A stretch of 64,000 bases of DNA from Anaerohalosphaeraceae bacterium (GCA_037479115.1 JBBFLK010000002.1:148040-212039), one strand, 5' to 3'. Positions 17,751 to 42,372 are shown, counted from the stretch's first letter. Notes: generated by a model from the letters alone, not told the origin. Program-made: numbers and translations.

Positions 17751-17804
17751 TGAAAAAAAAGGAACCCGTCAGGCAAAATCAAGCCGGACGGGTTCTTTTT
17801 TTAT
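17751..17804. terminator. Bidirectional intrinsic terminator between convergent genes
   Basis: AAAAAAAA, then a 9-bp perfect stem GAACCCGTC (17762-17770) / GACGGGTTC (17787-17795), then TTTTTTTAT. The hairpin overlaps the last codons of ahbAB. Confidence 0.6.
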
Positions 17805-18740: not shown

Positions 18741-19768
18741 GGCTTTCGTTCCTCGATATTTTGAGCCAGCCGACAGACCGGGTCCTGCTGAAGATAATCG
18801 CCGTACACCGCCAGGGCCCGTGCACGACAGCCGCGGCACACCGTCAAATACGCACAGCCCCCGCAGGCCCCCTTGTAGCCGTGCAGATTCCGCAGACGGC
18901 TGAACAATTCCGACTCGCCCCAAATCGACGCAAAATCTCTTTGAAGCAGACTGCCTGCCGACACCTCCAGAAACCCGCAGGGCTGCACATCCCCTCGCCA
19001 GTTGATAAAGACAAAATCTTCGCCCGCCAGGCATCCGGGCACTCTGTCGGCCTTCGGCAGGTTCTGCTGTCGGCACACACGGGCAAACTGCGGCCCGCAG
19101 GTGAGCCGAAGTTCAATCGACAGCCGGCCTTTCATCCGGCCCAGATATTCTAAAAGAGATTCATACTCACGCGGCTCCAGAAGCAGGTCTCGAATGGACT
19201 CGCCCCGCCCAACCGGCACGAGGATAAACGGATTCCAGCAGAAGGCCCCTGATTCCTCCGCAAGCCGGGCAATCCGGTCAATCTGCTCCAGATTCCGCTT
19301 GGTAATCGTCGTGTTAATCTGAAAATCCAGCCCCGCTCTGCGGGCGGCCTGAACGGCCCTCATTGTCGTCTGGAAAGCCCCCGGGCTGTCCCGAAAGGCA
19401 TCATGCGTCTGCGCATCGGCGCCATCCAGCGAAAAAGAAATCGACAGCAGCTCCGCTTTTTTGAGCCGTTCAGCGGCCGCCTCATCCAGATACCAGCCGC
19501 AGGTCGCCGCCGCCATCCGCAAGCCCATCTGCCGGCCTGCCTGAAGAATCTCAAAGAAATCCGCCCGGGCCATCGGCTCCCCTCCGGTTAAGATGGCAAT
19601 GCAGTGCCCGAAGGCAGCCAGCGACCGCAGGATGGAGATGCATTGCTCTGTAGTCAAAGCATCCTCCTGATGTCCGTCGGCAGCCGCGCGGCAGTGCCGG
19701 CAGTGCAGCGGACAGCGCCGCGTAATCTCAAAGGCCGCAATCCGGGGTTTTCTTAACAGTTTATCCAT
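18737..19768 (-). CDS. ahbD: Radical SAM/SPASM enzyme of the alternative heme pathway, probably heme synthase AhbD (NirJ2-like)
   Basis: CPLHCRHC (CxxxCxxC) and a C-terminal Cys-rich SPASM motif (CGGCAYLTVCRGCRA). The AhbC versus AhbD assignment rests on size and on my recollection of Desulfovibrio synteny (radical SAM - hemB - radical SAM), so it is tentative. Confidence 0.6.
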   Translation of the reverse strand: MDKLLRKPRIAAFEITRRCPLHCRHCRAAADGHQEDALTTEQCISILRSLAAFGHCIAILTGGEPMARADFFEILQAGRQMGLRMAAATCGWYLDEAAAERLKKAELLSISFSLDGADAQTHDAFRDSPGAFQTTMRAVQAARRAGLDFQINTTITKRNLEQIDRIARLAEESGAFCWNPFILVPVGRGESIRDLLLEPREYESLLEYLGRMKGRLSIELRLTCGPQFARVCRQQNLPKADRVPGCLAGEDFVFINWRGDVQPCGFLEVSAGSLLQRDFASIWGESELFSRLRNLHGYKGACGGCAYLTVCRGCRARALAVYGDYLQQDPVCRLAQNIEERKP

Positions 19769-20738
19769 TCAGCACTGCCGCAGCTTCTTTGGCAAAATAT
19801 GTTATTATAAAATCCGCACCGGCCCGTTTAATAGCCAACAGGGTTTCGAGCATGGCTTCCCGCCGGTCCATCAGTCCTGCCCTGGCGGCCTGGTTGACCA
19901 TCATATACTCCCCGGAGACGTTATAAGCCGCCAGCGGCACATCAAACCGCTGCCGAGCGGCCGCAATCACATCCAGATACGCCAGCGCCGGTTTGACCAT
20001 CACCATATCCGCCCCTTCTTCTATATCGAGGGCTATCTCCCGCATCGCCTGCCGAACGGAAGCCGCCGGGTCCATCTGATATGTTTTGCGATTGCCGAAG
20101 GCCGGGGCACTGTCGGCGGCCTCCCGAAACGGTCCGTAAAAGGCCGATGCATACTTGGCGGCATAACTCAAAACAGCCGTCTCCGTAAATCCGGCCTCAT
20201 CAAGGGTCTGACGAATCATCCCAATCCGTCCGTCCATCATATCCGACGGTGCCACCACATCCGCTCCGGCACGGGCGTGAGCCAGGGCTGTCCGAGCCAG
20301 GCACTGAAGGGTCTGGTCGTTGTCAATTTTTCCATCGCGGATGATACCGCAGTGTCCATGTTCCGTATAGGCACACAGACAAACATCCGTAATAACGAGC
20401 AAATCCGGCACGGCCTTTTTTACGGCACGAACGGCCCGGCAGACCGCCGAGTCCTCCGCCCATGCCTCCGACCCGTGCGCATCTTTTCGCAAAGGCAGGC
20501 CGAACAAAAGGACAGCCGGAATACCCAACTCGCCGATTTCCTGTGCTTCCCGCACAAGGGTATCCGGGGAAAAGTGAAAGCAGCCGTCCATCGAAGGAAT
20601 GGGCTTTTTGACATTTTCGCCCGGGCAGACAAAAAGCGGATACACCAAATCACTCACACTCAGCCGGGTTCCGGCAGTCAGACGACGCACAGCCGGACTG
20701 GCCCGCAGACGCCGCATTCGCACATCAGGAAATCCCAT
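19761..20738 (-). CDS. hemB: Porphobilinogen synthase (delta-aminolevulinate dehydratase)
   Basis: MRRLRASPAVRRL and full-length ALAD-like sequence. ATG at 20738 with a GGAGCAGGAG SD. The track ORF starts at a TTG at 20762. Confidence 0.93.
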   Translation of the reverse strand: MGFPDVRMRRLRASPAVRRLTAGTRLSVSDLVYPLFVCPGENVKKPIPSMDGCFHFSPDTLVREAQEIGELGIPAVLLFGLPLRKDAHGSEAWAEDSAVCRAVRAVKKAVPDLLVITDVCLCAYTEHGHCGIIRDGKIDNDQTLQCLARTALAHARAGADVVAPSDMMDGRIGMIRQTLDEAGFTETAVLSYAAKYASAFYGPFREAADSAPAFGNRKTYQMDPAASVRQAMREIALDIEEGADMVMVKPALAYLDVIAAARQRFDVPLAAYNVSGEYMMVNQAARAGLMDRREAMLETLLAIKRAGADFIITYFAKEAAAVLNG

Positions 20739-20742
20739 AGTC

Positions 20743-21897
20743 TTACTCCTGCTCCAGTGCAATCTCTTCTTCCGTCAAATAGCACGGCGGCTCATTCCGC
20801 CACAACTCGATATTGGCGCTTCCGTCCAATGAACGAAAGTTTCCGCCGCACAAATCAAACCACCGGCAGCGCCGGCACCGAGGGTCCCGATACTCCTTTT
20901 TGTTCCGCAAAACCATCAGAACCGGTTCGGCCGGGTTGTCCCAGATTTGAGCAAAGGACCTTTCGAGGACATTTCCGAGGGAATAACTCCGCCAAAACTG
21001 GTCAGGATACACCCGTCCGGCCCAGTCCACCGCGGCAATGTTCTGTCCGATGCGGTTGCCGGCCGCCCGCTTCAGCAGCGCCTCCGCATCGGCCGCCCGC
21101 TCCGAAGAGAGCTTCCGCAGCCGCATCAGCAGATACGGCCCGTCCGCATGGTTGCCGACCGTGAGCACTTCATCCGCCTGTCCGGCAGAGGTCCTTTGCT
21201 CCGTACAGGAAAGAATCGAATCCATCGCCTCCCTCACCAAAGCCGCGGAAGGCACGGCTTCCGCCAGGTCTTCGGCACGGCCGGTCCGAATCAAATGATA
21301 AAAGCAGATGCGCCGCACATCCAGGTCCGCCGCAATCTGAAACAGCAAGGGAATCTGCCTGATATTGTCCGCCGTCATTGTGAACCGAATGCCCGCAGGA
21401 ATTCCCGTCCGACGGCAGGCGTAAATCCCTTCTACAGCCGCCGCAAAAGCACCCTTGACCTGCCGAAAATCATCGTGAAACGCCGCCGGCCCATCCAGCG
21501 AAATCCCGACATAACTGACTCCCAAAGCCGCCAAATGCTCGGCCGTCGATTCCTGAATCAGCGTGCCGTTCGTGGATAAAACGGTGCGAAGTCCTTTGCC
21601 GCCGGCATATTCGAGCAGCTCAAATAGGTCCTCACGAAGCAGCGGCTCTCCGCCGCTGAACAGCAGCACCGGACAGCCGAAGTCGGCTATCTGGTCAATT
21701 AAGCATCGGGCCTGTTCTGTAGTCAGTTCCGGTTCCCCTCCAAAGCCCCGAACATGGCTGTAGCAGTGACGGCACGCCAGATTGCACCGCCAGGTACAGT
21801 TGAACACCACAATCGGCTTGTGATTCCGATGCGGCGGATAACGCAGCTCATCCGACCGGCCGGACTTGCCGCAATACAATTTACTGATATTAATCAT
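20743..21897 (-). CDS. ahbC: Radical SAM enzyme of the alternative heme pathway, probably 12,18-didecarboxysiroheme deacetylase AhbC (NirJ1-like)
   Basis: CNLACRHC radical SAM motif and a C-terminal CRRCRWFDLCGG cluster motif. 384 aa. The AhbC/AhbD assignment is tentative. Confidence 0.6.
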   Translation of the reverse strand: MINISKLYCGKSGRSDELRYPPHRNHKPIVVFNCTWRCNLACRHCYSHVRGFGGEPELTTEQARCLIDQIADFGCPVLLFSGGEPLLREDLFELLEYAGGKGLRTVLSTNGTLIQESTAEHLAALGVSYVGISLDGPAAFHDDFRQVKGAFAAAVEGIYACRRTGIPAGIRFTMTADNIRQIPLLFQIAADLDVRRICFYHLIRTGRAEDLAEAVPSAALVREAMDSILSCTEQRTSAGQADEVLTVGNHADGPYLLMRLRKLSSERAADAEALLKRAAGNRIGQNIAAVDWAGRVYPDQFWRSYSLGNVLERSFAQIWDNPAEPVLMVLRNKKEYRDPRCRRCRWFDLCGGNFRSLDGSANIELWRNEPPCYLTEEEIALEQE

Positions 21898-23413
21898 GAT
21901 ATTGAATCAGGGCCTCTGTCAGCCCCTCCAGGGTATGCACAGGAGCTTCAAGGGCTGCCGGAAGATTTTCCTCCAGCAGACGACGGGTCGTGCTCGGACC
22001 GATCGAGGCAATTTTCGCCCCGCTTTGGAGCACAGTTTCTTTCGACACAACCTTTAAAAAAGCGGATACGGCCGAACTGCTCGCAAACAGAATCCAGTCA
22101 ATCTTCCGGCGGCTCAACCGTTCCAGAATTGGTTCAATCTGCCGAGCGGACAGCTCCGCCGGTTCTACTGTATAACTTGAAACCTCCTCCACAATGGCTC
22201 CCTGCCGCAGCAGAGACTTCGGAAGGTCATCCGGAGCAATGGCGGAACGCAGCAGCAGAAATTTCTTTCCGGCCGGCGGCTCTTTTGCAGACAATTCCTC
22301 CGCCAGCGCCTGACCGGTAAACGTCGTCGGAACAAAATCGGCCCGCAAACCGTATTCGCCCAAGGCCCGTGCTGTTTCCGGACCAATACAGGCAATCCGG
22401 GTCCGACCAAAAGCCCGCGCATCTTTCCCCAACTGACGCAATCTTTCCAAAGAAAACTCCACACCGCGCCGGCTGGTAAAAACAACCCAGTCAAACTCCT
22501 CCAGCCGATTCAGGACGGCATCCGCCGCACCGGTTGCGGCAAAGTTTTGCACAGCAAGCACGGGCAACCCCAGCACGTCGGCTCCCAATTCATTCAGGCG
22601 ACGGCTCAACGAACGATTTCCCTCCTCATCCCGGGCAATCAGGACAGTCCTGCCCGCCAGCGGACGACGGCGAAACCAGTCCGTTTCCTCCCGATAGACG
22701 GCTGTCGGTCCAATCAATACGATGGCCGGTGCCTCTATCCCCTCCTGCCGGCAGACGGCGGCAATCTTCTCCAAAGAAGCATGAACTAGACGCTGTTGCG
22801 GCAGACTGGCGTTCTGAATCACCGCCGCCGGAGTATCCGCCGGTTTGCCGTTTGCCAGAAGGGCCGTAGCAATCTGCTCCAGATGGCTCATCGCCATATA
22901 AAAGGCGATTGTGCCGCGAAATCCGGCCAGGAAATCCCAGTCAATCGAAGATTCATTTTTGTCGGGGGCTTCCTGACCGGTCACAAAAAGAACCTGCGAG
23001 CTGAACTGCCGGTCGGTCAGAAACATTCCGGAATAAGCCGCCGCCGCAGAAGCCGCCGTCACGCCGGGAACTATCTCAAAATCAACCCCCGCATGAAGAC
23101 AAGTCTGGACTTCCTCCGCCGTCCTTCCGAAAAAACCGGGGTCTCCTCCTTTGAGCCGTACGACGGTCAGATATTGAGCGGCCTTCTCCAGCAGCAGCTG
23201 ATTGATTTGCTCCTGCGTAAAAGGTTTTTCTCCTGTTCGCTTGCGAACACAAAGGCATTCACAGTTCGGCCGGCAGTCCTCCAGAAGGGCCTCATTGACC
23301 AGACCATCGTAAATCACACAGTCGGCCTGACGGAGAAGCTGCGCCCCGCGCAGGGTAATCAGTGCCGGGTCTCCCGGACCCGCCCCAACAAAATAGATTT
23401 TGGTTTTATGCAT
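21890..23413 (-). CDS. cobA: Bifunctional uroporphyrinogen-III C-methyltransferase / uroporphyrinogen-III synthase (CobA-HemD fusion)
   Basis: N-terminal KIYFVGAGPGDPALITLRG (SUMT). The C-terminal ~250 aa are HemD-like. 8-nt overlaps with both neighbours. Confidence 0.88.
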   Translation of the reverse strand: MHKTKIYFVGAGPGDPALITLRGAQLLRQADCVIYDGLVNEALLEDCRPNCECLCVRKRTGEKPFTQEQINQLLLEKAAQYLTVVRLKGGDPGFFGRTAEEVQTCLHAGVDFEIVPGVTAASAAAAYSGMFLTDRQFSSQVLFVTGQEAPDKNESSIDWDFLAGFRGTIAFYMAMSHLEQIATALLANGKPADTPAAVIQNASLPQQRLVHASLEKIAAVCRQEGIEAPAIVLIGPTAVYREETDWFRRRPLAGRTVLIARDEEGNRSLSRRLNELGADVLGLPVLAVQNFAATGAADAVLNRLEEFDWVVFTSRRGVEFSLERLRQLGKDARAFGRTRIACIGPETARALGEYGLRADFVPTTFTGQALAEELSAKEPPAGKKFLLLRSAIAPDDLPKSLLRQGAIVEEVSSYTVEPAELSARQIEPILERLSRRKIDWILFASSSAVSAFLKVVSKETVLQSGAKIASIGPSTTRRLLEENLPAALEAPVHTLEGLTEALIQYHD

Positions 23414-24326
23414 TCGTTTTCAAAATCTCCAGAGCCCCCTGCTCAATCAGACGCTCGGCCAGACAATCCGCCCATTCTACCGCATTCAGAACCGGCCCGC
23501 AAATCCGCTCTTTCAGGAAAGGATGTCCCTGCGGGCCCGATGCAAACGCCGTCAGCGTAATCTGTTCCTTTTCTATGGCCGCATAGGCCCCGACCGGCGC
23601 ATGGCATCCGGGATGAAGCCGAGCCAGAATCCGGCGTTCCGCCTGGGCCGCTGCCGCTGTAGGAAAATGATGAATTCTTTGGAACAATTCGAACAAATGC
23701 TCGTTCGTTCGAAGAATCTCTACCGCAATCACCCCCTGGGCCGGTGCAGGCAGAAATTCCAGCGGGTCCAATATCAGCCCGTTCCAGCCGGTTATCCCCA
23801 GCCGCTCCAGTCCGGCACGAGCCAGAATGACGGCATCGTAGCGGCCTTCTTCGAGTTTTCGCAGACGTGTTTCGACATTGCCCCGAAGCGGCTCAACCCG
23901 AATATCGGGCCGCCGTCGAAGAATCTGGGCCTGTCGGCGGAGACTCGAGGTTCCCACGCAGGCTGCCGGCGGCAAATCTTCAATCCTCCGGATGGAGCGG
24001 CGAACCAGCAAAACATCCTCCGGAAAATCCCGCTCCAGCACCGCCGCAATACACAGACCATCCGGCGTCTGCGTCGGCAAATCCTTGAAACTGTGAACGG
24101 CAAAATCCGCCGTCCCCTCCAGCAGCGCCTGCTGGAGCCGGGCCGTAAAAAAACCGCTGCCTTCCAGTTTCCACAGCGGAGCATCCGCCTGCTGGTCGCC
24201 CTGGGTTCGGAGGATTTGCATCTCCACAGACAATCCCGGACAGACCTTTTGCAGGGCGTCAATCACCCGCTGGGTCTGAATCTGGGCCAGTTTCGAACCG
24301 CGTGTGGCTGCACGGAGCAGGCTCAT
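23406..24326 (-). CDS. hemC: Hydroxymethylbilane synthase (porphobilinogen deaminase)
   Basis: LRAATRGSKLAQIQT... The ATG at 24326 overlaps the hemA stop by 4 nt. The track ORF to 24422 is an over-extension. Confidence 0.92.
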   Translation of the reverse strand: MSLLRAATRGSKLAQIQTQRVIDALQKVCPGLSVEMQILRTQGDQQADAPLWKLEGSGFFTARLQQALLEGTADFAVHSFKDLPTQTPDGLCIAAVLERDFPEDVLLVRRSIRRIEDLPPAACVGTSSLRRQAQILRRRPDIRVEPLRGNVETRLRKLEEGRYDAVILARAGLERLGITGWNGLILDPLEFLPAPAQGVIAVEILRTNEHLFELFQRIHHFPTAAAAQAERRILARLHPGCHAPVGAYAAIEKEQITLTAFASGPQGHPFLKERICGPVLNAVEWADCLAERLIEQGALEILKTNA

Positions 24327-25606
24327 TCCTTTTGTCTCTTTTTCGGTGGGTCTTCCAGCAGCATCTTCCGCACCACATCCAGCACGCCCAGAAAATCCCC
24401 GGAGGGCTCTTGGCTGCCGCACTGCTTGAGATACGAAATCGGGCCGTGCAGAATCTTGCGGGCCAGCGATTCGGCAAACCGCTGAAGCTGTGCGTGTTCT
24501 GATTTGCTGAAATACCGCTGATAGCGACGGGCTTCCTTTTGAGCCAGCTGCCTGTAGCGGGAGGATAATTCGCTGACAAGATCGGCTGTCTGAAGCGAAT
24601 CCAGCCAGGCTGCAAACCGCTGTGCATGTTCGGCGACAATCCGCTCGGCCTGCTGAATCTGTTCGACCTGAATCGAACGGCTCGCTTCGGTTTGTCGGTT
24701 TAAATCATCCAGATTGAACAAACGAACCTGCGCAATCCCTCCCAGCGCCGGGTCCACATCCCGGGGCATCGCCAAATCGAGAATGACAATCGGCCGGCTC
24801 CGCTGGGCAAGCAGATAGGAATAGTCAGCGACCGTAATCAGCGGGGTCGGCGAAGCCGTCGTACAGACAGCCAAATCCGCCTGCCTGAGCAATTCCCCTA
24901 ACGAAGACAACTCCGCCGGCTGTCCGAACCGGAGGGCAGCGGCCAGCTGACGGGCGGATTCCAGACGCCGGCTGACAATCCACAAACGGCCGATTCCGAC
25001 CTTCACCAAAAGACGGCCCACCAGCTCCGCATTCTCGCCGGCCCCCAGCAGAAGCACCGTAGCCCCCGGCAGGGACATTTCCTTCCAGGCCAGTTCCACC
25101 GCCGCCGCCCCCAGCGAAATAGTCCCGGACTGGAGAATCGTCCGGCTCCGCACTTCTTTGGACGCGCGAAACGCCCGGTGAATCAGCCGATGAAAAAGGT
25201 AGCGCGTGGTCTGTTCTTCATTGGCCAGCGCATACGCCGCCTTCAGCTGGCTGATAATCTGATGCTCGCCGAGCATTTGAGAATCCAGTCCGGCGGCCAC
25301 GGCGAAAAGATGTTCCACCGCCTTTGTGCCGTCATATTCTTTTGAATAAGAACGCCACGGCTCCAGGGCCTCCGGCTGCATTTCGGCAATCAGCGGCTCC
25401 AGCAAACACCGGCTGTCTGCCGACGAATCCATCGAAAGATAAATCTCCGTGCGGTTGCAGGTACAGAGAATCAGCCCTTCATACACGCCGGAGCACCGCA
25501 GGAGGCCGCGCAGCAGATGCCGCTGCTGTTCTTCCGAAAAAGCCAGCTTTTCCCTCGCTTCGTAGGGCGCATCCCGAAAACTGACACCGCAGCAAACAAG
25601 CTTCAT
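24323..25606 (-). CDS. hemA: Glutamyl-tRNA reductase
   Basis: MKLVCCGVSFRDAPYEAREKLAF..., ILCTCNRTE, LLGAGENAE (NADPH site). The ATG at 25606 lies 6 nt after a -10-like hexamer. Confidence 0.92.
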   Translation of the reverse strand: MKLVCCGVSFRDAPYEAREKLAFSEEQQRHLLRGLLRCSGVYEGLILCTCNRTEIYLSMDSSADSRCLLEPLIAEMQPEALEPWRSYSKEYDGTKAVEHLFAVAAGLDSQMLGEHQIISQLKAAYALANEEQTTRYLFHRLIHRAFRASKEVRSRTILQSGTISLGAAAVELAWKEMSLPGATVLLLGAGENAELVGRLLVKVGIGRLWIVSRRLESARQLAAALRFGQPAELSSLGELLRQADLAVCTTASPTPLITVADYSYLLAQRSRPIVILDLAMPRDVDPALGGIAQVRLFNLDDLNRQTEASRSIQVEQIQQAERIVAEHAQRFAAWLDSLQTADLVSELSSRYRQLAQKEARRYQRYFSKSEHAQLQRFAESLARKILHGPISYLKQCGSQEPSGDFLGVLDVVRKMLLEDPPKKRQKE

Positions 25607-25612
25607 AGCGGC

Positions 25613-25641
25613 AGTGTAGCAGAGGCAACCAGAGAAATCAA
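25613..25641 (-). promoter_or_regulatory. Candidate promoter giving a leaderless hemA mRNA
   Basis: Minus strand reads TTGATT (25641-25636), 17 nt, TACACT (25618-25613), 6 nt, then ATG (25606). There is no SD. Confidence 0.45.
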
Positions 25642-25647
25642 CGGCGC

Positions 25648-25686
25648 ATAAAAAAGGTCCGCCGACACCGGTCAGCAGACCTTTTT
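25648..25686 (-). terminator. Intrinsic terminator after the triple-repeat gene
   Basis: Minus strand reads AAAAA, then an 11-bp stem GGTCTGCTGAC / GTCGGCGGACC (two G-U pairs, loop CGGT), then TTTTTTAT. Confidence 0.65.
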
Positions 25687-25698
25687 GTTTGGCAGAAA

Positions 25699-26739
25699 TC
25701 AATACGAAACGGCACCGCCCGGACGAACCATAGCGCGAACAATCTTTTTCCCTTCAAACGTCTGCGTGCCGCGCATCGTCGTAATCTGGCCGGTCAGTTT
25801 CGAATCCGCCAGTTTGCCGTCCAGACTGATTTCAAACGTCCGTTCTCCGAACTCCCGTTTGGCCTTAAACGAAACCTTCGTTCCGTCAAACTCAATCTTT
25901 TCAATCGGAAGGGTCCCGTACAGACCGCTCAGGTCCGGATTCACACGCAGCCGCTGCTTGTAAGAACCCTGGTCTGTCGCAATCTCCAGGTCCCAGCTTC
26001 CTATCAGAGCTTCGCCGAACCGCGCACCCTCGACAGCGATATCCCCCATTTCGGATTTCAGCGTGCCTTTGAGCAAACCGCTCTGTCGGTCAATCGTTCC
26101 TTCAAAGCTGGCTTCCATCTGGCGGTCGCCCATTTTCATTTTCCGCTTGAGGCTCAGGGTGCCCCGTTCGTATTTCACATCCGACACTTCGCTTTCCACG
26201 GGAGCCGACTGCCACTGGCCGGACAAATTGCCTTCTTTGTCCGCCTTGATAATCAGCTTGGCCTCTACATCCATGTCCCCGACCTTATATTTCAAATTCC
26301 AGGTCCCCACCACCCGTGGAAGACGCGGAAGACGGCGGCCTGTCACCTCCGATTCCCCCCGCTCTCCCGAAAGAGTACCGGACAGTTTATCCTCTTCCAC
26401 CTTGCCGGAAAATTTCGACCGGTATTCCTCGCCGCGAAAACGAGAAATCTGCTCGAAACGGAGTTTGCCGTCCTCAAACTGGATATCCTTCAGCTCGGCG
26501 ACTCCCCAGAAACTGATCCAGTCCCCGGTCAGATTGCCGTTTTCATCCCGGCCGAAGGAAACAAGGGCATCCATTTCGCGGTCTTCAAACTTGATTTTCA
26601 GTTCCCAATCGCCCCAAAGCCCCCTGCCGGCCCCTCCCATTCCGGCCGACTGTGCCGCCGCAGGAAAAGACAAAACCGCCGAGATTCCCGCCGTCAACAG
26701 AAGAAAAGACAGACATGAACAGGAAAAGGATGATTTCAT
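25699..26739 (-). CDS. Secreted protein made of three ~100-aa internal repeats (function unknown)
   Basis: The ATG at 26739 has a GGAGGG SD. Signal peptide MKSSFSCSCLSFLLLTAGISAVLSFPAAAQ. There are three repeats, each starting G(D/T/S)W(E/N/D)L and containing ..L(T/S)G.W..., ..F.G......L.G.L....G.....G.R. Confidence 0.75.
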   Translation of the reverse strand: MKSSFSCSCLSFLLLTAGISAVLSFPAAAQSAGMGGAGRGLWGDWELKIKFEDREMDALVSFGRDENGNLTGDWISFWGVAELKDIQFEDGKLRFEQISRFRGEEYRSKFSGKVEEDKLSGTLSGERGESEVTGRRLPRLPRVVGTWNLKYKVGDMDVEAKLIIKADKEGNLSGQWQSAPVESEVSDVKYERGTLSLKRKMKMGDRQMEASFEGTIDRQSGLLKGTLKSEMGDIAVEGARFGEALIGSWDLEIATDQGSYKQRLRVNPDLSGLYGTLPIEKIEFDGTKVSFKAKREFGERTFEISLDGKLADSKLTGQITTMRGTQTFEGKKIVRAMVRPGGAVSY

Positions 26740-26805
26740 AACAAGCCCTCCGAAATCACGGTTCCTTTTTGGCACCGAACCCAACAAAGTTCGGCATCTG
26801 AGGAA

Positions 26806-35018: not shown

Positions 35019-37097
35019 TCAACCCTCCCCTCTAAATCCGCCGGGCGGCGACATAGGAGGCGGAAAACCGCCCGGAGCAAAGCCGCCTGGGGTTAATCCG
35101 CCGGGTGTAAAGCCGCCGGGGGTCGGCGACATCCCCGGTTGGGATGTTCGTCCGACAAATACGTCACTCTCGGCCTCTCGTTCAGCCTCCTGAACATCGC
35201 GATAGTTTTTCCGCAGTTCCGCTGTCCAGTTCGCCTGGCGGATAGGAAGTTTTGCAAGAATCCCATCCTCCTGCGCATAAAGCATGCTCACAAACTCCCG
35301 CCGGCGCAGAGCCGTCATTGCACCCGACCAATCTACTTCTGCAATTTGGTCCAAATAGAGATACGGGGTCGTAAAATCAATTTTCTCCGGAACGGAAGCC
35401 GCCGTTGTCCCCATACCGGGGCCTTCCATAGGCATCGGAAATGCAGCGCCCATCGGAGGAGGTACCGCCCCTTCCATCCCGAACCCTGCGCCGGTTTCCG
35501 CAGAAGCGGCGGTCCTTTTGACCTCAACTTCTGAACCGATGAGTTGTCCCGGGAGTACTTCAAACTCATGACTTCTCCAGCGGCCCATATAATATTTGGA
35601 AACGCGCACGTTCACCGCAATCGGGTTGGTTCTGGAAATATCCATCGGGAAAATATGAAGTGTTTTGGGAATCGAAGCAATCAGCGGTTCATTCCTTTTG
35701 GCGACAGTTTCCGCAAACGGCGTCCATAAAACGATTTGATTCTTGAACTCCTGCTGGTCCGGCTTAAACCAGTCCCTGCCGGCAATCGGATTAAACAGGC
35801 CGACTCGAATTCGGTATTGATAGGTTTTTCCCGGCTGAACGGTGTCATCATGAGCCCAAACCAGCAAAGGTTCGGTCCGCTTCCACCAGTCATCCGTCAG
35901 CAATTCTCTCTGGTAATCCCGCCAGATGTCTTCAACCGTTCGCTGGCGTGTTCCCGGTCGAGTTGCCACGCCCGGGGCCCCCATATCCGGAGGCATCACT
36001 CCGGGGCCGCCCGGCTGAGTTCGCCCGGGCTGCGGCTGTTCCCGACCCGGCTGCGGCTGACGTCCCGGCTGGCGTCCCGGCTGCCGCGCTCCTCCGGGCC
36101 CCGGCAAGCCGCCTTCCATCCCTCCCGGAGCCGTCCGGCCCGGACCCGCTCCCGCGGCGCCGGCCGCCTGCTGCTGCGCCAATCGACGCGCTTCATCCCG
36201 CTGCTGCTGAAGCAGCTTCTGGGCTTCTTCCAGATACGGGGGCGGCATCCAATACTGATACCGCGACGTAGCAAAATCATACGGCCGCTGCTGCAGAAGT
36301 GACGCCTGACGAATGCGTTCTTTAAATTGTTCTATTTGAACAGAAACGCCGCCGCCGCTGAGCTCTTCGGTTCGGTACGGCAGCTGGTCAAACAGTTTTT
36401 TATAAGCAATCGTCTGGGGGCTCGGCACCCGCTCCCAAGGCCCCCAAGAGCCGTCCGGAAGCTGTTCTCTACGCTGCAGCTCCACTCGGGCGGCAACAGG
36501 AACCGCCAAAACCGGGTCTTTATGGGCCGGACGAACTCCCAAGCCCATAAAGGCCGATTGAAACTGCTGCACAATCCGCCGGACATCCAGCCGGGCCGAA
36601 ACCGTCACAAAATCCACATCTCCTATCTGGACGGGAACATTCTCATACGGCAGCTCCGGCGTAACCTCTTCCGTCGGAACGTAAGCGGCCGAACGGATAT
36701 AAGCCATCTGAACATCCTGCAGCGGCGGAATCTCCGGCACAGCGTATTCCCGGTCTGTTTCGATCGGCTGACGCCCAATCCCGGGCAGCATCGGGTAAAC
36801 CTGCAGATTCAGGGTCGGAACAGAGGAAGCAAGGAGCCGTTCATAGGAGGGAATAAAATCCGGCAGCGGCAGTGATACCGTCTCCGACGCCCCCTCAATT
36901 CGTTCACGAAGACGTTCCGCTTTCTGAGCCAGCTTATTCTGGGCCGAACCGGGAGATTCCTTGCGCCCATCAATCACCGGACCGAACGGATTTCGAAAAA
37001 CAAACAGCCACAGCAGCCCCAGACTCAGCAGACCGATTCCGGCAAGAATGATTTTATCCAAATGCTGCTCAAGAAGATTTTCTCGTTTTTTGCTCAT
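35019..37097 (-). CDS. Bitopic membrane protein with Pro/Gly/Gln/Met-rich low-complexity tracts (function unknown), third gene of the PilM-like cluster
   Basis: 692 aa. One N-terminal TM (IILAGIGLLSLGLLWLFVF). Central tract PGRQPGRQPQPGREQPQPGRTQPGGPG. C-terminal tract TPGGFTPGGLTPGGFAPGGFPPPMSPPGGF. Confidence 0.75.
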   Translation of the reverse strand: MSKKRENLLEQHLDKIILAGIGLLSLGLLWLFVFRNPFGPVIDGRKESPGSAQNKLAQKAERLRERIEGASETVSLPLPDFIPSYERLLASSVPTLNLQVYPMLPGIGRQPIETDREYAVPEIPPLQDVQMAYIRSAAYVPTEEVTPELPYENVPVQIGDVDFVTVSARLDVRRIVQQFQSAFMGLGVRPAHKDPVLAVPVAARVELQRREQLPDGSWGPWERVPSPQTIAYKKLFDQLPYRTEELSGGGVSVQIEQFKERIRQASLLQQRPYDFATSRYQYWMPPPYLEEAQKLLQQQRDEARRLAQQQAAGAAGAGPGRTAPGGMEGGLPGPGGARQPGRQPGRQPQPGREQPQPGRTQPGGPGVMPPDMGAPGVATRPGTRQRTVEDIWRDYQRELLTDDWWKRTEPLLVWAHDDTVQPGKTYQYRIRVGLFNPIAGRDWFKPDQQEFKNQIVLWTPFAETVAKRNEPLIASIPKTLHIFPMDISRTNPIAVNVRVSKYYMGRWRSHEFEVLPGQLIGSEVEVKRTAASAETGAGFGMEGAVPPPMGAAFPMPMEGPGMGTTAASVPEKIDFTTPYLYLDQIAEVDWSGAMTALRRREFVSMLYAQEDGILAKLPIRQANWTAELRKNYRDVQEAEREAESDVFVGRTSQPGMSPTPGGFTPGGLTPGGFAPGGFPPPMSPPGGFRGEG
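35035..35124 (-). repeat. Tandem 15-bp coding repeat (about 6 units, 4 well preserved) encoding X-P-G-G-Phi pentapeptides
   Basis: Plus-strand units are aaaccgcccggagca / aagccgcctggggtt / aatccgccgggtgta / aagccgccgggggtc (35065-35124), plus degenerate units from 35035. Confidence 0.8.
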
Positions 37098-37160
37098 GAA
37101 AATATCCTGTGCTCATCATTTTCCGTTCGAACAGCTCATCCCGCAGCCGGCCTGTCATCA

Positions 37161-38507
37161 TCAATACCCCGCCGGCCCAAACGGCGCAGCAGAGGCACCC
37201 GCTGCAGATTGTCCCAGCAGGACCTTCACCGGCTCCGGTTTGATTTCATCATAGGCCTTGCGGACAAACAGATACTCGCAAACCAAGTCCACCCGCATCG
37301 CCGCATCGGTTCCGTACCGGTAATAATAATGCGAAGGGCTCTGCTTATCCACTGCGGAAAAAGTACTGGCCAAGATCGTAATCTGATTGTGGCGGCCCTG
37401 ACGAATTTCACCGTTTTCCTTAAACCCCTCCCGATAACTGTGGGGCCTGCTGGAACAAAGTTCTTTCAAAAACGCCTGCGTATAGCGGCTGTCCACAATC
37501 ACCGATACGGCAAAGTGAACTACATCAATGTCCTCGTTGCCGATTCGAGCCGTCCAGGGACGCGAAATCAGCGGGCTGGGCATACCGGGCAGGACATAAG
37601 CCGGCTGGTCAGATGTCATGCTGCCGCCGAATCCGCCAAACCCTCCGAAACGCGGAGACACAACTCCAGGCATCCCCCCGACCCCTCCGGACAGTCCCCC
37701 CGCAGGGACATCCGACACCGGACGCTGAAAACTCACCCCCATCAGCCGTTTAACGGGAGAATCCGCAACCCGCTCCGACCCCGTGTTCATCGCCTCAATC
37801 GCCGCCACTACATCTTCATAAATCCAATAGGCCGTTTGAGCAAACCAGCAGTCGCGCAGGGCCTGCTCGGCCCCCACAAACTGGTACGATTCCCAAAAAT
37901 CATACCAGGCAAAAACCCGCGGATGCGCATACATCGCAATTCGCTCCGCCCGAGCATTGCAAATCGCATTGACCATCGGATTGTCCGCCGCTCCCAACTG
38001 ACCCAATCCGGGCGTTCCTCCCAAAAACTCCCCGCCGCGAACGGCACCGACCGTCCCGCCGCCGGCCGCCCGAATTTCGCTTTCCGAGGGAGCATCGAGG
38101 GCCTTCAGTCGTTCGGTAATCATCTGTTCAATGGCCGCTCGATACCGTCGCCCGAAATCCAGATAGACCTGGGACGATGTGTCCTCGGATTTCGGAAAAA
38201 TTCCGTATTTAATCAGCTCACGCAGCGAGGACTGGATTGACATCCGCTGAACGGCTTCTGCATCCGCCCGATACTGCTGTAGAACTCTCTGAACCTGTTC
38301 GGCCTGCTCTTTCGGAGGGGTCGTTCGAGCCAGACTGTCGAGAGTCTGAGCCATTCGCTCCCAGTCCTGCTTTTTGGTGCTGACGGTTCGTCCAATCAGA
38401 ATCGTCGGAACGAACAGAACCAGCCCGACCAGCAGCAGCCCCGCCGGCAGCAGAAGAGCCGAATATTTTTTCAAATACCCCTTGATGATATCAATTACCA
38501 TATTCAT
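37161..38507 (-). CDS. Bitopic membrane protein with Gly-rich tracts (function unknown; possible PilO analogue), second gene of the PilM-like cluster
   Basis: 448 aa. N-terminal TM (ALLLPAGLLLVGLVLFVPTILIG), a coiled-coil-like segment, GGLSGGVGGMPGVVSPRFGGFGGFGGSM, and a Gly/Ala tail. Confidence 0.75.
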   Translation of the reverse strand: MNMVIDIIKGYLKKYSALLLPAGLLLVGLVLFVPTILIGRTVSTKKQDWERMAQTLDSLARTTPPKEQAEQVQRVLQQYRADAEAVQRMSIQSSLRELIKYGIFPKSEDTSSQVYLDFGRRYRAAIEQMITERLKALDAPSESEIRAAGGGTVGAVRGGEFLGGTPGLGQLGAADNPMVNAICNARAERIAMYAHPRVFAWYDFWESYQFVGAEQALRDCWFAQTAYWIYEDVVAAIEAMNTGSERVADSPVKRLMGVSFQRPVSDVPAGGLSGGVGGMPGVVSPRFGGFGGFGGSMTSDQPAYVLPGMPSPLISRPWTARIGNEDIDVVHFAVSVIVDSRYTQAFLKELCSSRPHSYREGFKENGEIRQGRHNQITILASTFSAVDKQSPSHYYYRYGTDAAMRVDLVCEYLFVRKAYDEIKPEPVKVLLGQSAAGASAAPFGPAGY

Positions 38508-38549
38508 GATTTAGTCTCACATCTGGATGATTGCTTCGCTATGATCTGC

Positions 38550-40943
38550 CTAAAAATCACCGCCGCCTCCGACGCCGCCGGGAGCTGTCGGAACAGCCGT
38601 TGGGAAAAATCCGCCGCCCATACCGCCTGTACTCATTTCCGGCACAACCGGGGCGTCTTTCCATACAAACTTGGCCTGAATCCGAAACCAGGAATCCCGC
38701 AAAATATATTGAGGTTCTCCGAAGGGGCTCTGTTTGACACGGCCCAAGTCCCGGTCCGTATAAGCCGGATTATTTCTAATATCCTCCGGCGTAATATAAT
38801 CCAGCGTTTTGCTGATTTCCTCCTCTGTCATCGGATCGATAAGGACAATCTCCCTGGTGACGCGAGTCGGAACCGCTCCGGTCATCCCGGGCATCATAGG
38901 ACCCGGCGCCGCCGTCATCCCCGGTGCGGCACCGGCCGGCTGAGTTGACGGAACCCGCTCCACCTCCCGGAGAATCCCGATTCCGGCCGGCATCTGCATA
39001 TCCGCCGGGTCCACGGCTCCGGATTCATCCCGAAAATGCCGGATATCGCCTTTGCCGAACAGCTCAAACGGCGTATCCGGAAACAGGGTTTTGAGATTCT
39101 CAAACCGGGTCACCACACCCCATCGTCTCGAGTCTGACCCGACCCCGGGCGGGTCCAGCAATTGAGCAATATTTTTATAAGGACTGTAGCCCTCAATTAA
39201 TACAACAAATCCCGCCTGCGGCGTTGTGCCGGCGGCTCCCATCATGTCTCCGCCGACCATACCAGGCCCCCCGAACATCTCTCCCGGCATCCCTCCGGGC
39301 CGCATGACAGGTCCGCCCATAAAGCCGCCCATCTCTCCGCCGAACCCGCCGCCGGGGCCAAATCCGCTTGCCCCCCGCCGGCTCCCCTGCGGAAAAGCCG
39401 CCGAGGCCAAATCCGGTGCAAACTGAATCTCCAGACGCGTCACAAACATAATTTTTCTTTCTGCACGCGGTATGGAGCGGATAGTCCGGATGTCTCCATT
39501 CACAAACGCCTCGTATAAAGCGGCGATTTCCGGCGTGTTGTCTTTATTTGGAAAACACTTCAAAAGGGTTTCATTCAGGAGAGGAATAATCTGCCGATAT
39601 TTGAACAAATCCAGCTCCTTTTGAACCTGCTGTTCAAACATCGGTTTTTGGCTTTCAAATTCTGAAACGGCTGAATTGATGCTTTGGGCCTGCTGCATTA
39701 CGGCCTGAACCGTCCGAAGGGCTCCGCTCTCGCGGGTGTACTGCTGAAGCAGACGGAAGGTCCAGAGCAGACAAACCAGACTGACCGCCAGAAAAACCCC
39801 GGCTGCAGCCGTAAAGACCCTCGCTTTGCGGGTCCAGGCCATTGCCCGGGCAATTCGGCGAGGCAGAAGATTGGTTTCAATCTTCGATTCGCCCAGCAGC
39901 TGAACCCCCAAACCGTATACCACACCGAACTCAGAAAGATTTTCATGAAACTTGGCCGCGGACACTTCCGGAGAAAGCGTCAGCCGCTCGAAGGAATCGG
40001 GCTTAATCACCGGAAGCCCCAGACTCTGCTGAAGATATTTGGTCAGTCCCTGAAGCTTAAAACCGCCCCCCAGCGCCAGTATGCGTGAAAATCCCTTATC
40101 CCGGCCGGCTCCGCTGGATGAATAAAACCCAAGACTTCGCTGAATTTCACCGGCCAAATCCGTATAAACCGGCTTCATCGCTGTGAAAATCTGCCGCATA
40201 TACTTGCTCATCGGGGCCGTCCGCTTGAGTTTTTCGGCCTTGGCAAACTTCAGCTTAAAGGCGTCGGCAATCGCTTCAGTAAACGTGTTGCCCCCGATTC
40301 GAATGCTGCGCTGCCAGACCGAATCGCGGGTGGCAATCACCAGCGTAGTGTTCTCGGCCCCCATGTCGAGAATAATGGTGGCTTTTCCGGCCGAAGCACT
40401 GATATCCTTCAGGTCATACAGCGCATAATTATACAGAGCAATCGGACTGATTTGCACACAGCTGACACGCAGATTTTCCCGACTGAAAAAGTCCAGCATC
40501 TCGGCGATGACTTCATTTTTGATGGCAAAAATCCCGACTTCCGTATCAGGGCTGTCCGGATTTTTCAGCAGCTGCCAATCCCACTCGACCTCATTGATAT
40601 CAAAGGGAATCTGCTGTACGGCTTCGAGAGGGACGATTTTGGGAATCCGCTTGGGGTCCACCGGCGGCATCTTGACCAGCCGGGCAAAACTGTTTTGACC
40701 GGCTATAGCAATGGCAACCTCTTCCCTGCCGACCTCATTTTCTTTCAGAAACTCTCGAAGGGTTTGTTGAATAGTTTCCCGGCGTTCTTCCGGTGTGACG
40801 TCTGCGGTGGAAAGAATTTTCGAGTGTTCCAGACAGGCAAAGCCCGCTACCTCCAGCCCTTCTGCACCCCGCCGGAGCCGCAAGGCCTTTAATGAGCAGG
40901 TTCCGATATCAATCCCCCAGACCGCATGCGACGCTTTGGCCAT
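38550..40943 (-). CDS. PilM-PilN fusion protein (GspL-like topology) with a long Gly/Met/Pro-rich periplasmic extension
   Basis: Actin-like ATPase motifs WGIDIGTCSLKAL, ILDMGAENTTLVIA, RIGGNTFTEAIA, ILALGGGFKLQGL. TM VFTAAAGVFLAVSLVCLLWTF. ATG at 40943 with an AAGGAAGAAAGGAA SD; the track ORF starts at 40970. Confidence 0.8.
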   Translation of the reverse strand: MAKASHAVWGIDIGTCSLKALRLRRGAEGLEVAGFACLEHSKILSTADVTPEERRETIQQTLREFLKENEVGREEVAIAIAGQNSFARLVKMPPVDPKRIPKIVPLEAVQQIPFDINEVEWDWQLLKNPDSPDTEVGIFAIKNEVIAEMLDFFSRENLRVSCVQISPIALYNYALYDLKDISASAGKATIILDMGAENTTLVIATRDSVWQRSIRIGGNTFTEAIADAFKLKFAKAEKLKRTAPMSKYMRQIFTAMKPVYTDLAGEIQRSLGFYSSSGAGRDKGFSRILALGGGFKLQGLTKYLQQSLGLPVIKPDSFERLTLSPEVSAAKFHENLSEFGVVYGLGVQLLGESKIETNLLPRRIARAMAWTRKARVFTAAAGVFLAVSLVCLLWTFRLLQQYTRESGALRTVQAVMQQAQSINSAVSEFESQKPMFEQQVQKELDLFKYRQIIPLLNETLLKCFPNKDNTPEIAALYEAFVNGDIRTIRSIPRAERKIMFVTRLEIQFAPDLASAAFPQGSRRGASGFGPGGGFGGEMGGFMGGPVMRPGGMPGEMFGGPGMVGGDMMGAAGTTPQAGFVVLIEGYSPYKNIAQLLDPPGVGSDSRRWGVVTRFENLKTLFPDTPFELFGKGDIRHFRDESGAVDPADMQMPAGIGILREVERVPSTQPAGAAPGMTAAPGPMMPGMTGAVPTRVTREIVLIDPMTEEEISKTLDYITPEDIRNNPAYTDRDLGRVKQSPFGEPQYILRDSWFRIQAKFVWKDAPVVPEMSTGGMGGGFFPTAVPTAPGGVGGGGDF

Positions 40944-40995
40944 GATGTTCCTTTCTTCCTTATGCTCCATCCGACGAGGCCGTCTGCAAAAAAAC

Positions 40996-41025: not shown

Positions 41026-41034
41026 AAGCCGTCT

Positions 41035-42372
41035 ATGAAACACTTTATCATTCATACGCTCGGCTGCAAAGTCAATCAATATGAAAGCTGCCAGATTGAA
41101 CAATGGCTGCGTTCTCACGGCGTCTGCCCCGCCCCCTCCGGTTCTCCGGCCGACCTGGTTATCGTCAACACCTGCTGCATCACCCAAACCGCTGCTTCGA
41201 AAAGCCGTCAGGCCGTCCGCAAACTCCACAAGCAGAACCCCTCCGCCCTTCTGATTCTTACCGGCTGCCTGTCCGCAGCTACCGCCGAGGAAACCGCCGA
41301 CCTGCCGAAAACCGCCGTCTGGGCCGCCGATAAACATCAGCTGCTGGATATTCTGCGTTCTTTGTCCGACTCATCTGAAGACAGAGTATCCAACGGAATC
41401 AGTAAAACACCATTTTCCTATAAAATCAAGCACAAAAACGACCTGGACATACAACAATTTCCCGACTGCGACCCTTTCGGTCCGCTGAACAGTTTTTCCG
41501 GCCAAACCCGCGCCTTTCTGAAAATCCAGGACGGCTGCGATGTTTTCTGCACCTATTGTATTGTTCCAAAAATCCGCAAAAAACTCTGGAGCAAACCCAC
41601 AGATGTAATTCTTCGGGAAGCAGAGGACCTTCTTGCTGCCGGACATAAAGAAATTGTCCTGACAGGCATCTTTCTGGGGGCATGGGGGCGCAGCACAGCC
41701 CGTCGGAAACACTGGAAGCCTGACGAACCCAACCCTCTTGTCTCTCTTTTGAAACAGATTTTAAAGCTTCCGAATCTTATCCGCCTTCGGCTCAGCTCCC
41801 TGGAGCCGGCGGATGTAACGGATGAACTCATTGAAGTCTATCAACAATATCCGAATCTGGTTCCGCATCTTCATCTTCCCCTTCAATCCGGCTCGGACCG
41901 CATCCTGAAACGGATGGCCCGACAATACACGTCAGAGGAATATTTGAATATCTGCCGAAAACTGCAGGAACGGTTGGACCGACCGGCCATCACGACGGAT
42001 ATTATCGTCGGTTTTCCCGGAGAAACGGAAGAGGATTTCGAAAAAACTGTTGAAGTTTGCCGTCAGGTTGGATTCGCAAAAATGCATATTTTCCCATTCA
42101 GCCCCAGACGGGGTACAGCGGCCGCTCGAATGAAACCGCCTGTCCCCGCGGGAGTCATCCGCAGGCGCGCAGAGAAACTTCAGAAACTGGATAAGGAACT
42201 TCAGGAAAAGTTTCGACGTCAGTTTATCGGCCAGACTGTTCGTGTGATTCTCGAACAGACAAATCCCCCCGCAGGCCGCTGCGACCGGTACTTTATGGTA
42301 GATTGCTCAACCGCCGAGTTTCCTGAGCCGCCCCTCCAGGGGCAAGTCGTTTCAATCCGCCTGGACCGTTAA
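41035..42372 (+). CDS. mtaB: tRNA methylthiotransferase, MtaB-like (radical SAM, UPF0004 + TRAM)
   Basis: MKHFIIHTLGCKVNQYES..., radical SAM DGCDVFCTYC, C-terminal TRAM-like domain. The track ORF from 40795 is an over-extension. Confidence 0.8.
   Translation: MKHFIIHTLGCKVNQYESCQIEQWLRSHGVCPAPSGSPADLVIVNTCCITQTAASKSRQAVRKLHKQNPSALLILTGCLSAATAEETADLPKTAVWAADKHQLLDILRSLSDSSEDRVSNGISKTPFSYKIKHKNDLDIQQFPDCDPFGPLNSFSGQTRAFLKIQDGCDVFCTYCIVPKIRKKLWSKPTDVILREAEDLLAAGHKEIVLTGIFLGAWGRSTARRKHWKPDEPNPLVSLLKQILKLPNLIRLRLSSLEPADVTDELIEVYQQYPNLVPHLHLPLQSGSDRILKRMARQYTSEEYLNICRKLQERLDRPAITTDIIVGFPGETEEDFEKTVEVCRQVGFAKMHIFPFSPRRGTAAARMKPPVPAGVIRRRAEKLQKLDKELQEKFRRQFIGQTVRVILEQTNPPAGRCDRYFMVDCSTAEFPEPPLQGQVVSIRLDR

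Follow-up and report, generated by a model that had tools for sequence, protein, structure and literature searches.

The three-gene locus

We analyzed a 64,000-nucleotide stretch of DNA (referred to below as the window) from an Anaerohalosphaeraceae bacterium (GCA_037479115.1, JBBFLK010000002.1:148040-212039), a metagenome-assembled genome of the lineage Sedimentisphaerales, Phycisphaerae, Planctomycetota. The subject of this study is a set of three genes, here called G1, G2, and G3, which follow one another on the minus strand and encode a PilM-PilN fusion protein and two bitopic membrane proteins. A preliminary description made from the sequence had reported three co-oriented minus-strand genes at this site; all three open reading frames (ORFs) were confirmed, and every motif and low-complexity string that it had quoted was found, so that the observation goes far beyond what chance would give. 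The positions of the genes and of their features are collected in Table 1.

The gaps between the genes are short, with 42 nt between G1 and G2 and 63 nt between G2 and G3. For G1, the annotated start at 40943 lies 9 codons after the first ATG and gives a protein of 797 residues. The G1 product is 100% identical to P0001, annotated as "type IV pilus assembly protein PilM" of Anaerohalosphaeraceae bacterium, and the public annotation of the operon consists of "PilM" and two hypothetical proteins. A scan of the operon for promoters and terminators yielded no enrichment over shuffled sequences and was uninformative.

Hydropathy analysis detected one hydrophobic transmembrane (TM) segment in each protein (residues ~15 to 35, or 13 to 36, in G3; see Table 1 for G1 and G2). 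These positions place the N-terminal domain of G1 in the cytoplasm and its ~400 C-terminal residues in the periplasm, while the single N-terminal TM segment of G2 and of G3 makes them signal-anchored proteins with nearly all of their mass outside the cytoplasm. The single TM helix per protein and the bitopic nature of G2 and G3 had been proposed before, together with the absence of any recognizable sequence motif in the latter two; hydropathy and profile scans agree on these points. Neither G2 nor G3 has a lipobox cysteine, and G2, lacking this cysteine, is hence not a lipoprotein.

Three antisense ORFs of up to 392 aa overlap the operon on the plus strand (37062-38240, 35736-36875, and 40452-40892). 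They are rich in Arg, Pro, and Ser and look like by-products of a G+C-rich, low-complexity coding strand rather than genes.

Table 1. Positions of G1, G2, and G3, of their features, and of the gene adjoining G1 (coordinates of the window)
Feature	Position	Strand	Residues	Remarks
G1, PilM-PilN fusion	38550-40970	minus	806 aa	from first ATG; ORF call
G1 actin-like PilM domain, cytoplasmic	39903-40925	minus	~16-356	PF11104, TIGR01175, PDB PilM
G1 I-E-T-N-L-L-P, PilN N-terminal signature in cis to PilM	39861-39881	minus	364-370	
G1 TM helix, single	39747-39809	minus	~388-408	Kyte-Doolittle 19-residue peak 2.34
G1 periplasmic part	38553-39740	minus	411-806	conserved blocks 411-526, 587-673, 703-774
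G1 low-complexity tract 1, Gly/Met/Pro/Phe-rich	39213-39392	minus	527-586	39-75 aa in homologues
G1 low-complexity tract 2	38865-38951	minus	674-702	
G1 Gly-rich C-terminal tail	38553-38648	minus	775-806	
G2	37161-38507	minus	448 aa	ORF call; bitopic
G2 signal-anchor TM helix	38388-38459	minus	~17-40	
G2 disordered Gly-rich loop	37980-38060	minus	150-176	pLDDT <50 at 155-169
G2 disordered Gly/Phe/Met loop inside alpha/beta domain	37608-37724	minus	262-300	pLDDT <50 at 271-279, 281-296
G3	35019-37097	minus	692 aa	ORF call; bitopic
G3 periplasmic domain A, alpha/beta	36138-36755	minus	~115-320	ends in long helix 286-316; AlphaFold2 model
G3 disordered Arg/Gln/Pro/Gly linker	35937-36137	minus	~321-387	pLDDT 42-46
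G3 periplasmic domain B, beta-rich, immunoglobulin/fibronectin type III-like	35148-35936	minus	~388-650	AlphaFold2 model
G3 disordered Met/Gly/Pro insert in domain B	35388-35510	minus	530-570	
G3 Gly/Pro/Phe/Met-rich C-terminal tail	35022-35135	minus	655-692	pLDDT 34-40
MiaB/MtaB-like radical-SAM methylthiotransferase	41026-42372	plus		PF00919 (UPF0004) and PF04055 (Radical_SAM); divergent from G1
pLDDT, predicted local distance difference test

Conservation of the operon within a single order

A scan with the G2 alignment of one genome for each GTDB species gave 68 loci, and this was followed by tblastn. G1, G2, and G3 were present in 64, 68, and 66 of these loci, respectively, in identical order and on the same strand wherever the contig permitted. 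In four loci found via homologues (L001 to L004), a divergent MiaB-like gene is followed by genes for a PilM-like protein of 730 to 778 aa, a protein of 401 to 468 aa, and a protein of 613 to 647 aa, and then by unrelated genes; the second and third of these proteins have no Pfam match. For G2, we detected 207 homologues and for G3 120, all annotated as hypothetical and all, where the source is named, from Planctomycetota or Phycisphaerae. Throughout the order Sedimentisphaerales, whose members are abundant anaerobic polysaccharide degraders, the operon is conserved. The family includes the cultured species Sedimentisphaera salicampi and S. cyanobacteriorum, which makes the operon experimentally tractable.

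Among the contigs that carry the operon (34 to 47% identity to G2), some are titled "uncultured Pirellulales," "Gimesia maris," "Blastopirellula marina," "Bacteroidaceae," or "Desulfobacterales" (off-lineage titles include those of L016, L019, L026, L029, L032, L039, L040, L068, and L070). These labels are probably taxonomic mislabels or binning contamination and not occurrences outside Phycisphaerae.

G1 joins a PilM domain to the PilN signature and a clade-restricted periplasmic part

The PilM hallmarks noted earlier in G1 were corroborated by three lines of evidence. The domain matched PF11104 in Pfam (residues 19 to 355, E value of 2e-37, 129 bits against a cutoff of 27), it exceeded the 133-bit cutoff of the NCBIfam PilM model TIGR01175 with 151.5 to 154.5 bits, and the PDB PilM chains 3jc8, 2ych, and 5eou matched it by sequence with E values of 3e-27 to 2e-18. 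Three nucleotide-binding signatures, DIGT, DMGAENT, and GGG, show no variation (D21/G23, D202/G204, and G301 to G303) in an alignment of 60 sequences, and the actin-like domain probably binds nucleotide. Across the family, the PilM domain has a mean identity of 71%.

PilN proteins carry a conserved N-terminal peptide, INLLP, that binds PilM. In G1, this signature stands in cis to the PilM domain, immediately behind it and just ahead of the TM helix; I364, N367, L369, and P370 are invariant in 60 of 60 sequences, and L368 is present in 57 of them. Furthermore, the alignment of G1 with the PDB chimera 5eou, in which PilM is fused to residues 1 to 12 of PilN, spans the INLLP stretch. With the PilM domain, the INLLP motif, and the TM helix all found in its sequence, G1 is a true PilM-PilN fusion protein with a GspL-like architecture. 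The PilN-like segment proposed previously is thus upheld as to its PilN identity by the invariant motif, whereas the coiled coil that it was said to contain had no Pfam PilN match.

The top NCBIfam family for G1 was NF045709 (Amuc_1101 family PilM-like pilus complex protein), which scored 230 bits with model positions 45 to 449 aligned. The actin domain alone scored 195.5 bits with this model versus 154.5 bits with generic PilM. Two distant full-length homologues likewise scored higher with the Amuc_1101 family than with generic PilM (246 versus 147 bits in S. salicampi and 237 versus 148 bits in P0455).

Full-length homologues of G1 measure ~730 to 845 aa; more than 2,000 clusters were matched, and the best 120 are all 52 to 87% identical. 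The conserved blocks of the periplasmic part are 41 to 61% identical within the family. When this part was compared exhaustively by phmmer with 1.84 billion representatives, it matched only 170 clusters (at 50% identity), many of them fragments and all belonging to its own family; no remote relatives, such as the C terminus of Amuc_1101, were found in this search. At the level of sequence, the periplasmic part of G1 is a clade-restricted invention.

G2 resembles PilO and Amuc_1100 in its predicted fold

Neither the G2 protein of the window nor any of the 55 members of its family, scanned individually, matched a Pfam or NCBIfam model; one member reached an E value of 0.12 for GspL_C, which is noise. 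In the PDB, no relative was found by sequence, either by phmmer or by hmmsearch with the 55-sequence profile. The AlphaFold2 model built from the family alignment is confident, with a mean pLDDT of 84.3 and a predicted template modeling score of 0.76. In this model, the TM helix runs into long helices, which are followed by an alpha/beta domain, and the low-confidence segments coincide with the low-complexity tracts (155 to 169, 271 to 296, and 439 to 448). The loop at residues 262 to 300 keeps its position in homologues, while its sequence and its length (17 to 42 aa) vary.

A Foldseek comparison of the model with 350,542 PDB chains retrieved Amuc_1100 (6lad, 6kny, and 6laf) with probabilities of 0.57 to 0.94 and template modeling scores on the target of 0.41 to 0.54. 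PilO chains (2rjz, 5uvr, and 3jc8_O) were retrieved with probabilities of 0.95 to 0.99, but with E values of 0.04 to 0.15 and template modeling scores of at most 0.49. Together, Amuc_1100 and PilO chains account for 12 of the 23 top PDB matches. Since 5uvr is the PilO core alone, the match is not merely one of long helices. The topology and the helices of G2 are also in keeping with a PilO- or GspM-type protein. On the basis of this predicted fold, we read G2 as a putative PilO/GspM/Amuc_1100-type partner.

G3 is a large bitopic protein with two predicted periplasmic domains

The G3 model has a mean pLDDT of 78, with 369 residues at 90 or above, and contains two confidently folded domains. The linker between them measures 54 to 118 aa in homologues and is 37% charged, and domain B contains an invariant block formed by W414, H416, D417, Y428, R429, G433, N436, and P437. 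No Pfam or NCBIfam match was obtained with the protein of the window or with any of the 61 family members, and neither phmmer nor a profile hmmsearch found a sequence relative in the PDB. A Foldseek comparison with the PDB returned nothing above a probability of 0.15 apart from trivial short matches, and the weak matches were of the immunoglobulin/fibronectin type III type only. In its topology, an N-terminal anchor followed by periplasmic beta domains on linkers, G3 resembles GspC, a likeness that we take as an analogy and not as demonstrated homology. G3 is a case of a confident predicted fold without a solved relative, and its family and the periplasmic domain of G1 define two new protein families.

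Low-complexity tracts are conserved in position and not in sequence

Windows of 25 residues with a Gly+Met+Pro fraction of at least 0.6 occurred in only 3 of the 48 plausible genes of the window, namely, G1, G2, and G3, and the next best gene reached 0.48. The compositional oddity is therefore specific to these three genes and does not reflect a genome-wide bias. This supports the earlier statement that all three proteins carry Gly/Met/Pro tracts, except that the central tract of G3 is mainly Arg/Gln/Pro-rich and charged. In the G2 and G3 models, the tracts correspond exactly to segments with a pLDDT below 50.

In homologues, the tracts lie at the same alignment positions, and their length and sequence vary greatly; within the G1 family, their identity is 18 to 22%, compared to 41 to 71% in the folded blocks. 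Met makes up 11 to 14% of several tracts, a 3- to 4-fold enrichment over a background of ~3.5 to 3.8%. A Met content of at least 10% was found in 37 of 60 sequences for G1 tract 1, 36 of 58 for the G1 tail, 33 of 61 for the G3 insert, and 36 of 61 for the G3 tail, and the Gly+Met+Pro fraction of the G3 tail was at least 0.5 in 31 of 61 homologues. In the remaining orthologues, the equivalent sites are occupied by Arg/Gly/Thr-rich or charged tracts. Met residues had been described as regularly spaced, but we found them enriched and not regular; no MxxM or MxM register, His, or Cys is conserved in the tracts, and the conserved residues all lie within the folded domains.

What the orthologues share is a flexible, disordered insert at a given position, often biased toward Gly/Met/Pro, and no particular motif. 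We favor a role of the tracts as spacers or entropic elements; a cohesive Met/Phe-Gly "sticker-spacer" mesh is a low-probability possibility. The occurrence of several Met/Gly-rich disordered inserts inside periplasmic scaffold domains is an unusual case.

Comparison with known systems

In Akkermansia muciniphila, the MUL2 genes (Amuc_1099 to Amuc_1102, adjoining the secretin-like Amuc_1098) encode proteins that are abundant in the envelope and needed for mucin uptake (PMC5332112, PMC13174399, PMC12418764). In this pili-like cluster, Amuc_1101 is the PilM-like MUL2B, Amuc_1102 is the pilin-like MUL2A, and Amuc_1098 is secretin-like. MUL2 is the closest described system to the operon studied here. 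Both come from the Planctomycetes-Verrucomicrobia-Chlamydiae (PVC) superphylum, and both include a PilM-like protein that continues at its C-terminal side into a TM helix and a periplasmic extension, the MUL2 protein representing the best NCBIfam match of G1. The gene that comes next specifies, in each system, a bitopic protein with helical and alpha/beta parts, with Amuc_1100 leading the structural matches of G2, and after it stands one more gene whose function is unknown (PMC13174399, PMC5332112). Nevertheless, the two systems differ in several respects. G1 stays far below the cutoff of the Amuc_1101 family (230 versus 650 bits), in which its ~400-aa periplasmic part has no match. NCBIfam models of the Amuc_1100 and Amuc_1099 type show no similarity in sequence to G2 or G3. 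No locus has a pilin-like gene upstream or a secretin gene downstream of the three genes. For G3, with its 692 aa and two folded periplasmic domains, no counterpart was detected among the MUL2 proteins as described; judged by these descriptions, it is a different and much larger third protein. Finally, Gly/Met/Pro disordered tracts are not among the described features of MUL2.

The PilM-PilN-PilO-PilP proteins of type IVa pili (Pseudomonas, Myxococcus, and Thermus) offer a second comparison. G1 scores above the PilM cutoff and has INLLP followed by a TM helix, the next gene encodes a protein with a predicted PilO-like fold, and the gene order corresponds to M-N-O-(fourth component). In contrast, PilM and PilN are fused in G1, the three proteins have large disordered inserts, and no Pfam PilN, PilO, or PilP match was obtained. 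PilP is a small lipoprotein whose beta-sandwich domain binds the N0 domain of PilQ. G3 is instead a signal-anchored protein of 692 aa, with no PilP profile match among its 61 family members and no structural match of its model, and no pilQ or other secretin gene lies downstream of the operon in the 68 loci (in the window, GntR and ATP-binding cassette [ABC] genes occupy this place).

In type II secretion systems, GspL joins an actin-like domain in the cytoplasm through a single TM helix to a domain in the periplasm. GspM is bitopic and resembles PilO, while the bitopic GspC begins with a TM helix, beyond which its beta domains touch the secretin from the periplasm. The architecture of G1 is that of GspL, G2, as a bitopic protein with a predicted PilO-like fold, is like GspM, and the topology of G3 is like that of GspC. 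However, we found no Pfam T2SSL, GspL_C, T2SSM, or T2SSC match and no gspD to gspK genes nearby, and the cytoplasmic domain of G1 is of the PilM type and keeps INLLP.

A diverged inner-membrane platform is the probable identity of the operon

We consider it probable that the three proteins are a diverged, clade-specific PilMN/PilO/GspC-like platform in the inner membrane, one that belongs to the type IV filament superfamily (type IV pili and type II secretion) and is related to Akkermansia MUL2. The PilO/Amuc_1100-like predicted fold of G2 and the best match of the G1 actin domain, which is to the Amuc_1101 family, point to a diverged orthodox platform, and they weaken the earlier proposal that a PilM/PilN scaffold had been recruited into a different machine. 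As profile tests for the periplasmic part of PilN, for PilO, PilP, GspL, GspM, and GspC, and for FtsA all failed, the platform would be a variant that belongs to no named subfamily besides PilM.

In such a platform, the actin-like domain of G1 would be tethered via INLLP and the TM helix to the periplasmic domain, as in GspL, and the PilM domain, bound to the PilN peptide of the same chain, would provide the docking site for a cytoplasmic motor or platform. The 71% identity of the cytoplasmic domain, compared to the much lower identity of the periplasmic part, is in line with a conserved partner in the cytoplasm. G2 may pair with the periplasmic part of G1, as PilO does with PilN or GspM with GspL, via the helices and the alpha/beta core of G2, as the topology of the two proteins and the predicted fold of G2 suggest. 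From its topology, G3 would reach from the platform toward an outer-membrane component, and G1, G2, and G3 would form a complex. The Gly/Met/Pro segments could act as flexible spacing elements, with which the folded modules would bridge a periplasm whose width varies. Genes for the ATPase, the platform protein, the (pseudo)pilins, and the secretin would lie in other parts of the genome.

Several results weigh against this interpretation. Residues 361 to 806 of G1 had no Pfam or NCBIfam match, PilN (PF05137) and GspL_C included, and the score of G1 falls far short of the equivalog cutoff of NF045709, a 608-position model. The structural matches of G2 are weak, with E values of 0.01 to 0.1, none below 1e-3, and template modeling scores of at most 0.54, and the PilO and GspM sequence profiles (PF04350 and T2SSM) matched none of the 55 G2 members. 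G3 showed no similarity to PilP, to GspC, or to any structure solved so far. Strong PilO or PilP matches, which would have pointed to an ordinary pilus alignment complex, were accordingly absent from both G2 and G3. In hhalign comparisons among the three family alignments, we found no paralogy between the periplasmic part of G1 and G2, which also counts against a PilN/PilO-like pair, and no relatedness of G3 to either.

The gene neighborhood likewise speaks against it. In agreement with the preliminary description, Pfam scans detected no pilin, PilB/PilT, PilC, secretin, or prepilin peptidase gene in the 64-kb window, where a six-frame search with a regular expression for the prepilin N-terminal motif returned nothing credible, and none was present within 10 kb on either side of 72 related loci. 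Indeed, the operon was never embedded in a pilBCQ/pilin locus, and the clustered flanking ORFs of the 68 loci included no recurrent pilin, ATPase, platform protein, peptidase, or secretin. The operon, designated an orphan, stands alone in every related genome examined. This term claims less than it may suggest: pilMNOP(Q) operons are often unlinked from the pilB, pilC, and pilin genes in ordinary pilus systems, and "orphan," as judged from the loci and the window, means unlinked and not necessarily partnerless.

A literature search retrieved no paper in which PilM and Phycisphaerae both appear and none on this operon. The players in macromolecule uptake by planctomycetes are unknown, and their division without FtsZ is likewise an open question (PMC12673574, a 2025 review). 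The operon is the closest planctomycete relative of Akkermansia MUL2 found here. If the link to MUL2 is true, it would point to a glycan-uptake apparatus shared within PVC bacteria; if it fails, the operon would still represent a well-delineated, divergent pilus or secretion platform.

Alternative explanations

An autonomous trans-envelope assembly without any role in a pilus or in secretion, in which the disordered tracts would be the working parts (e.g., an elastic tether or a gel), seems unlikely to us. Such an assembly would account for an operon that always stands alone, for a G3 and a G1 periplasmic domain that are clade restricted and without known relatives, and for disordered tracts that are specific to these genes and conserved in position. 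However, lack of linkage is common among ordinary pilMNO operons, and the poorly conserved sequences of the tracts are typical of linkers. Moreover, G2 is PilO/Amuc_1100-like in its predicted fold, the PilN motif and the PilM nucleotide signatures of G1 are invariant, and G1 groups with the MUL2B family.

We regard as quite doubtful a more far-reaching version of the MUL2 relationship, in which the operon would be the Sedimentisphaerales counterpart of MUL2 in a PVC-wide machine, derived from type IV filaments, for the "selfish" uptake of large glycans into the periplasm. Gly/Met/Phe/Pro-rich disordered loops, extending from a multimeric ring of PilMN, PilO, and G3, would then build a cohesive FG-nucleoporin-like or Met-rich mesh to gate or cushion a periplasmic conduit.

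A role in division or envelope morphogenesis, with G1 as an FtsA-like tethered actin homologue and G2 and G3 as periplasmic divisome partners, is very improbable. Its attraction is that ftsZ has been lost in all planctomycetes and ftsA in most, Phycisphaerae included (PMC12673574). PilM and FtsA share a fold within the actin-like superfamily, G1 has weak matches to the Pfam FtsA domain (39.9 bits) and to MreB, its cytoplasmic domain is highly conserved, and the operon lies amid housekeeping genes. Against this, the FtsA equivalog model TIGR01174 gave only 28 to 32 bits with a cutoff of 175.85, while pilM exceeded its own cutoff, and an FtsA identity for G1 was rejected. G1 would attach to the membrane by a TM helix that follows a PilN motif and not by an amphipathic helix, and the invariant INLLP together with a G2 of predicted PilO-like fold are hallmarks of pili and secretion. 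In addition, the periplasmic domains are limited to one order, whereas the loss of FtsZ is phylum-wide, and no dcw or peptidoglycan genes lie nearby in the window or the related loci.

Finally, periplasmic copper or metal handling by tracts that would bind Cu(I) like the motifs of CopA, PcoC, and CueO is hardly credible and was rejected. In its favor are the Met enrichment of several tracts and their position on the periplasmic side. However, a Met content of at least 10% is found in only ~55 to 60% of orthologues even for the Met-richest tracts, a flexible insert with no conserved motif argues against a specific Cu(I) site, and no copper-resistance genes occur nearby in the window or the related loci.

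Neighboring genes

The MiaB-like gene is divergent from G1 and lies beside it in 47 of the 68 loci (most of the contigs that reach that far), as it does in L001 to L004. The shared intergenic region measures only 56 to 83 nt, and the pairing may be only inherited synteny. Among the clustered flanking ORFs of the 68 loci, the recurrent genes encode glycoside hydrolase family 2 (GH2; 23 loci), a fumarase subunit, siroheme synthase, YchF, and histidine kinases. The GH2 gene (beta-mannosidase-like) is convergent and directly follows G3 in these 23 loci (e.g., L001, 15799-18312; L002, 15878-18376). In the window, the GntR and ABC genes replace it, and a GH5 cellulase gene lies beyond the MiaB-like gene.

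The inventory of the window, based on Pfam scans of plausible genes among ORFs of at least 150 aa, consists of housekeeping and carbohydrate genes. They include gatA and gatB, GH31, a BNR protein, DprA, a sugar ABC transporter, a heme cluster, YchF, fumarase, GntR with an ABC transporter, the MiaB-like and GH5 genes, carB, a trp operon, and glycogen genes. The DprA gene (10806-12032, minus strand) is ~23 kb from the operon, and one also lies ~10 kb upstream in L002 (1-427). DprA (DNA-processing protein A) is linked to natural transformation, and no other gene associated with competence or pili was seen in the vicinity of the operon; the observation is weak, DprA being widespread. Two adjacent TadE/G-like genes (PF13400) lie past the MiaB-like gene in L004, a Sedimentisphaerales metagenome-assembled genome (2169-4944, plus strand), and did not recur in the other loci.

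The heme cluster (17769-26787, minus strand) is contiguous and of the alternative, siroheme-dependent Ahb type. It encodes AhbA/B NirD/L-like proteins (AsnC_trans_reg2), two radical-SAM/SPASM proteins, HemB, a fused CobA-HemD, HemC, and HemA, and it also holds a 362-aa ORF without a Pfam match (25699-26787). Between 29999 and 33540, on the minus strand, there are four consecutive ORFs without a Pfam match, of 177, 182, 553, and 208 aa, the last of which is hydrophobic and permease-like. In the same orientation, they come after the genes for the GntR regulator and the ABC ATPase that follow G3, with which they probably form one GntR-ABC-permease operon.

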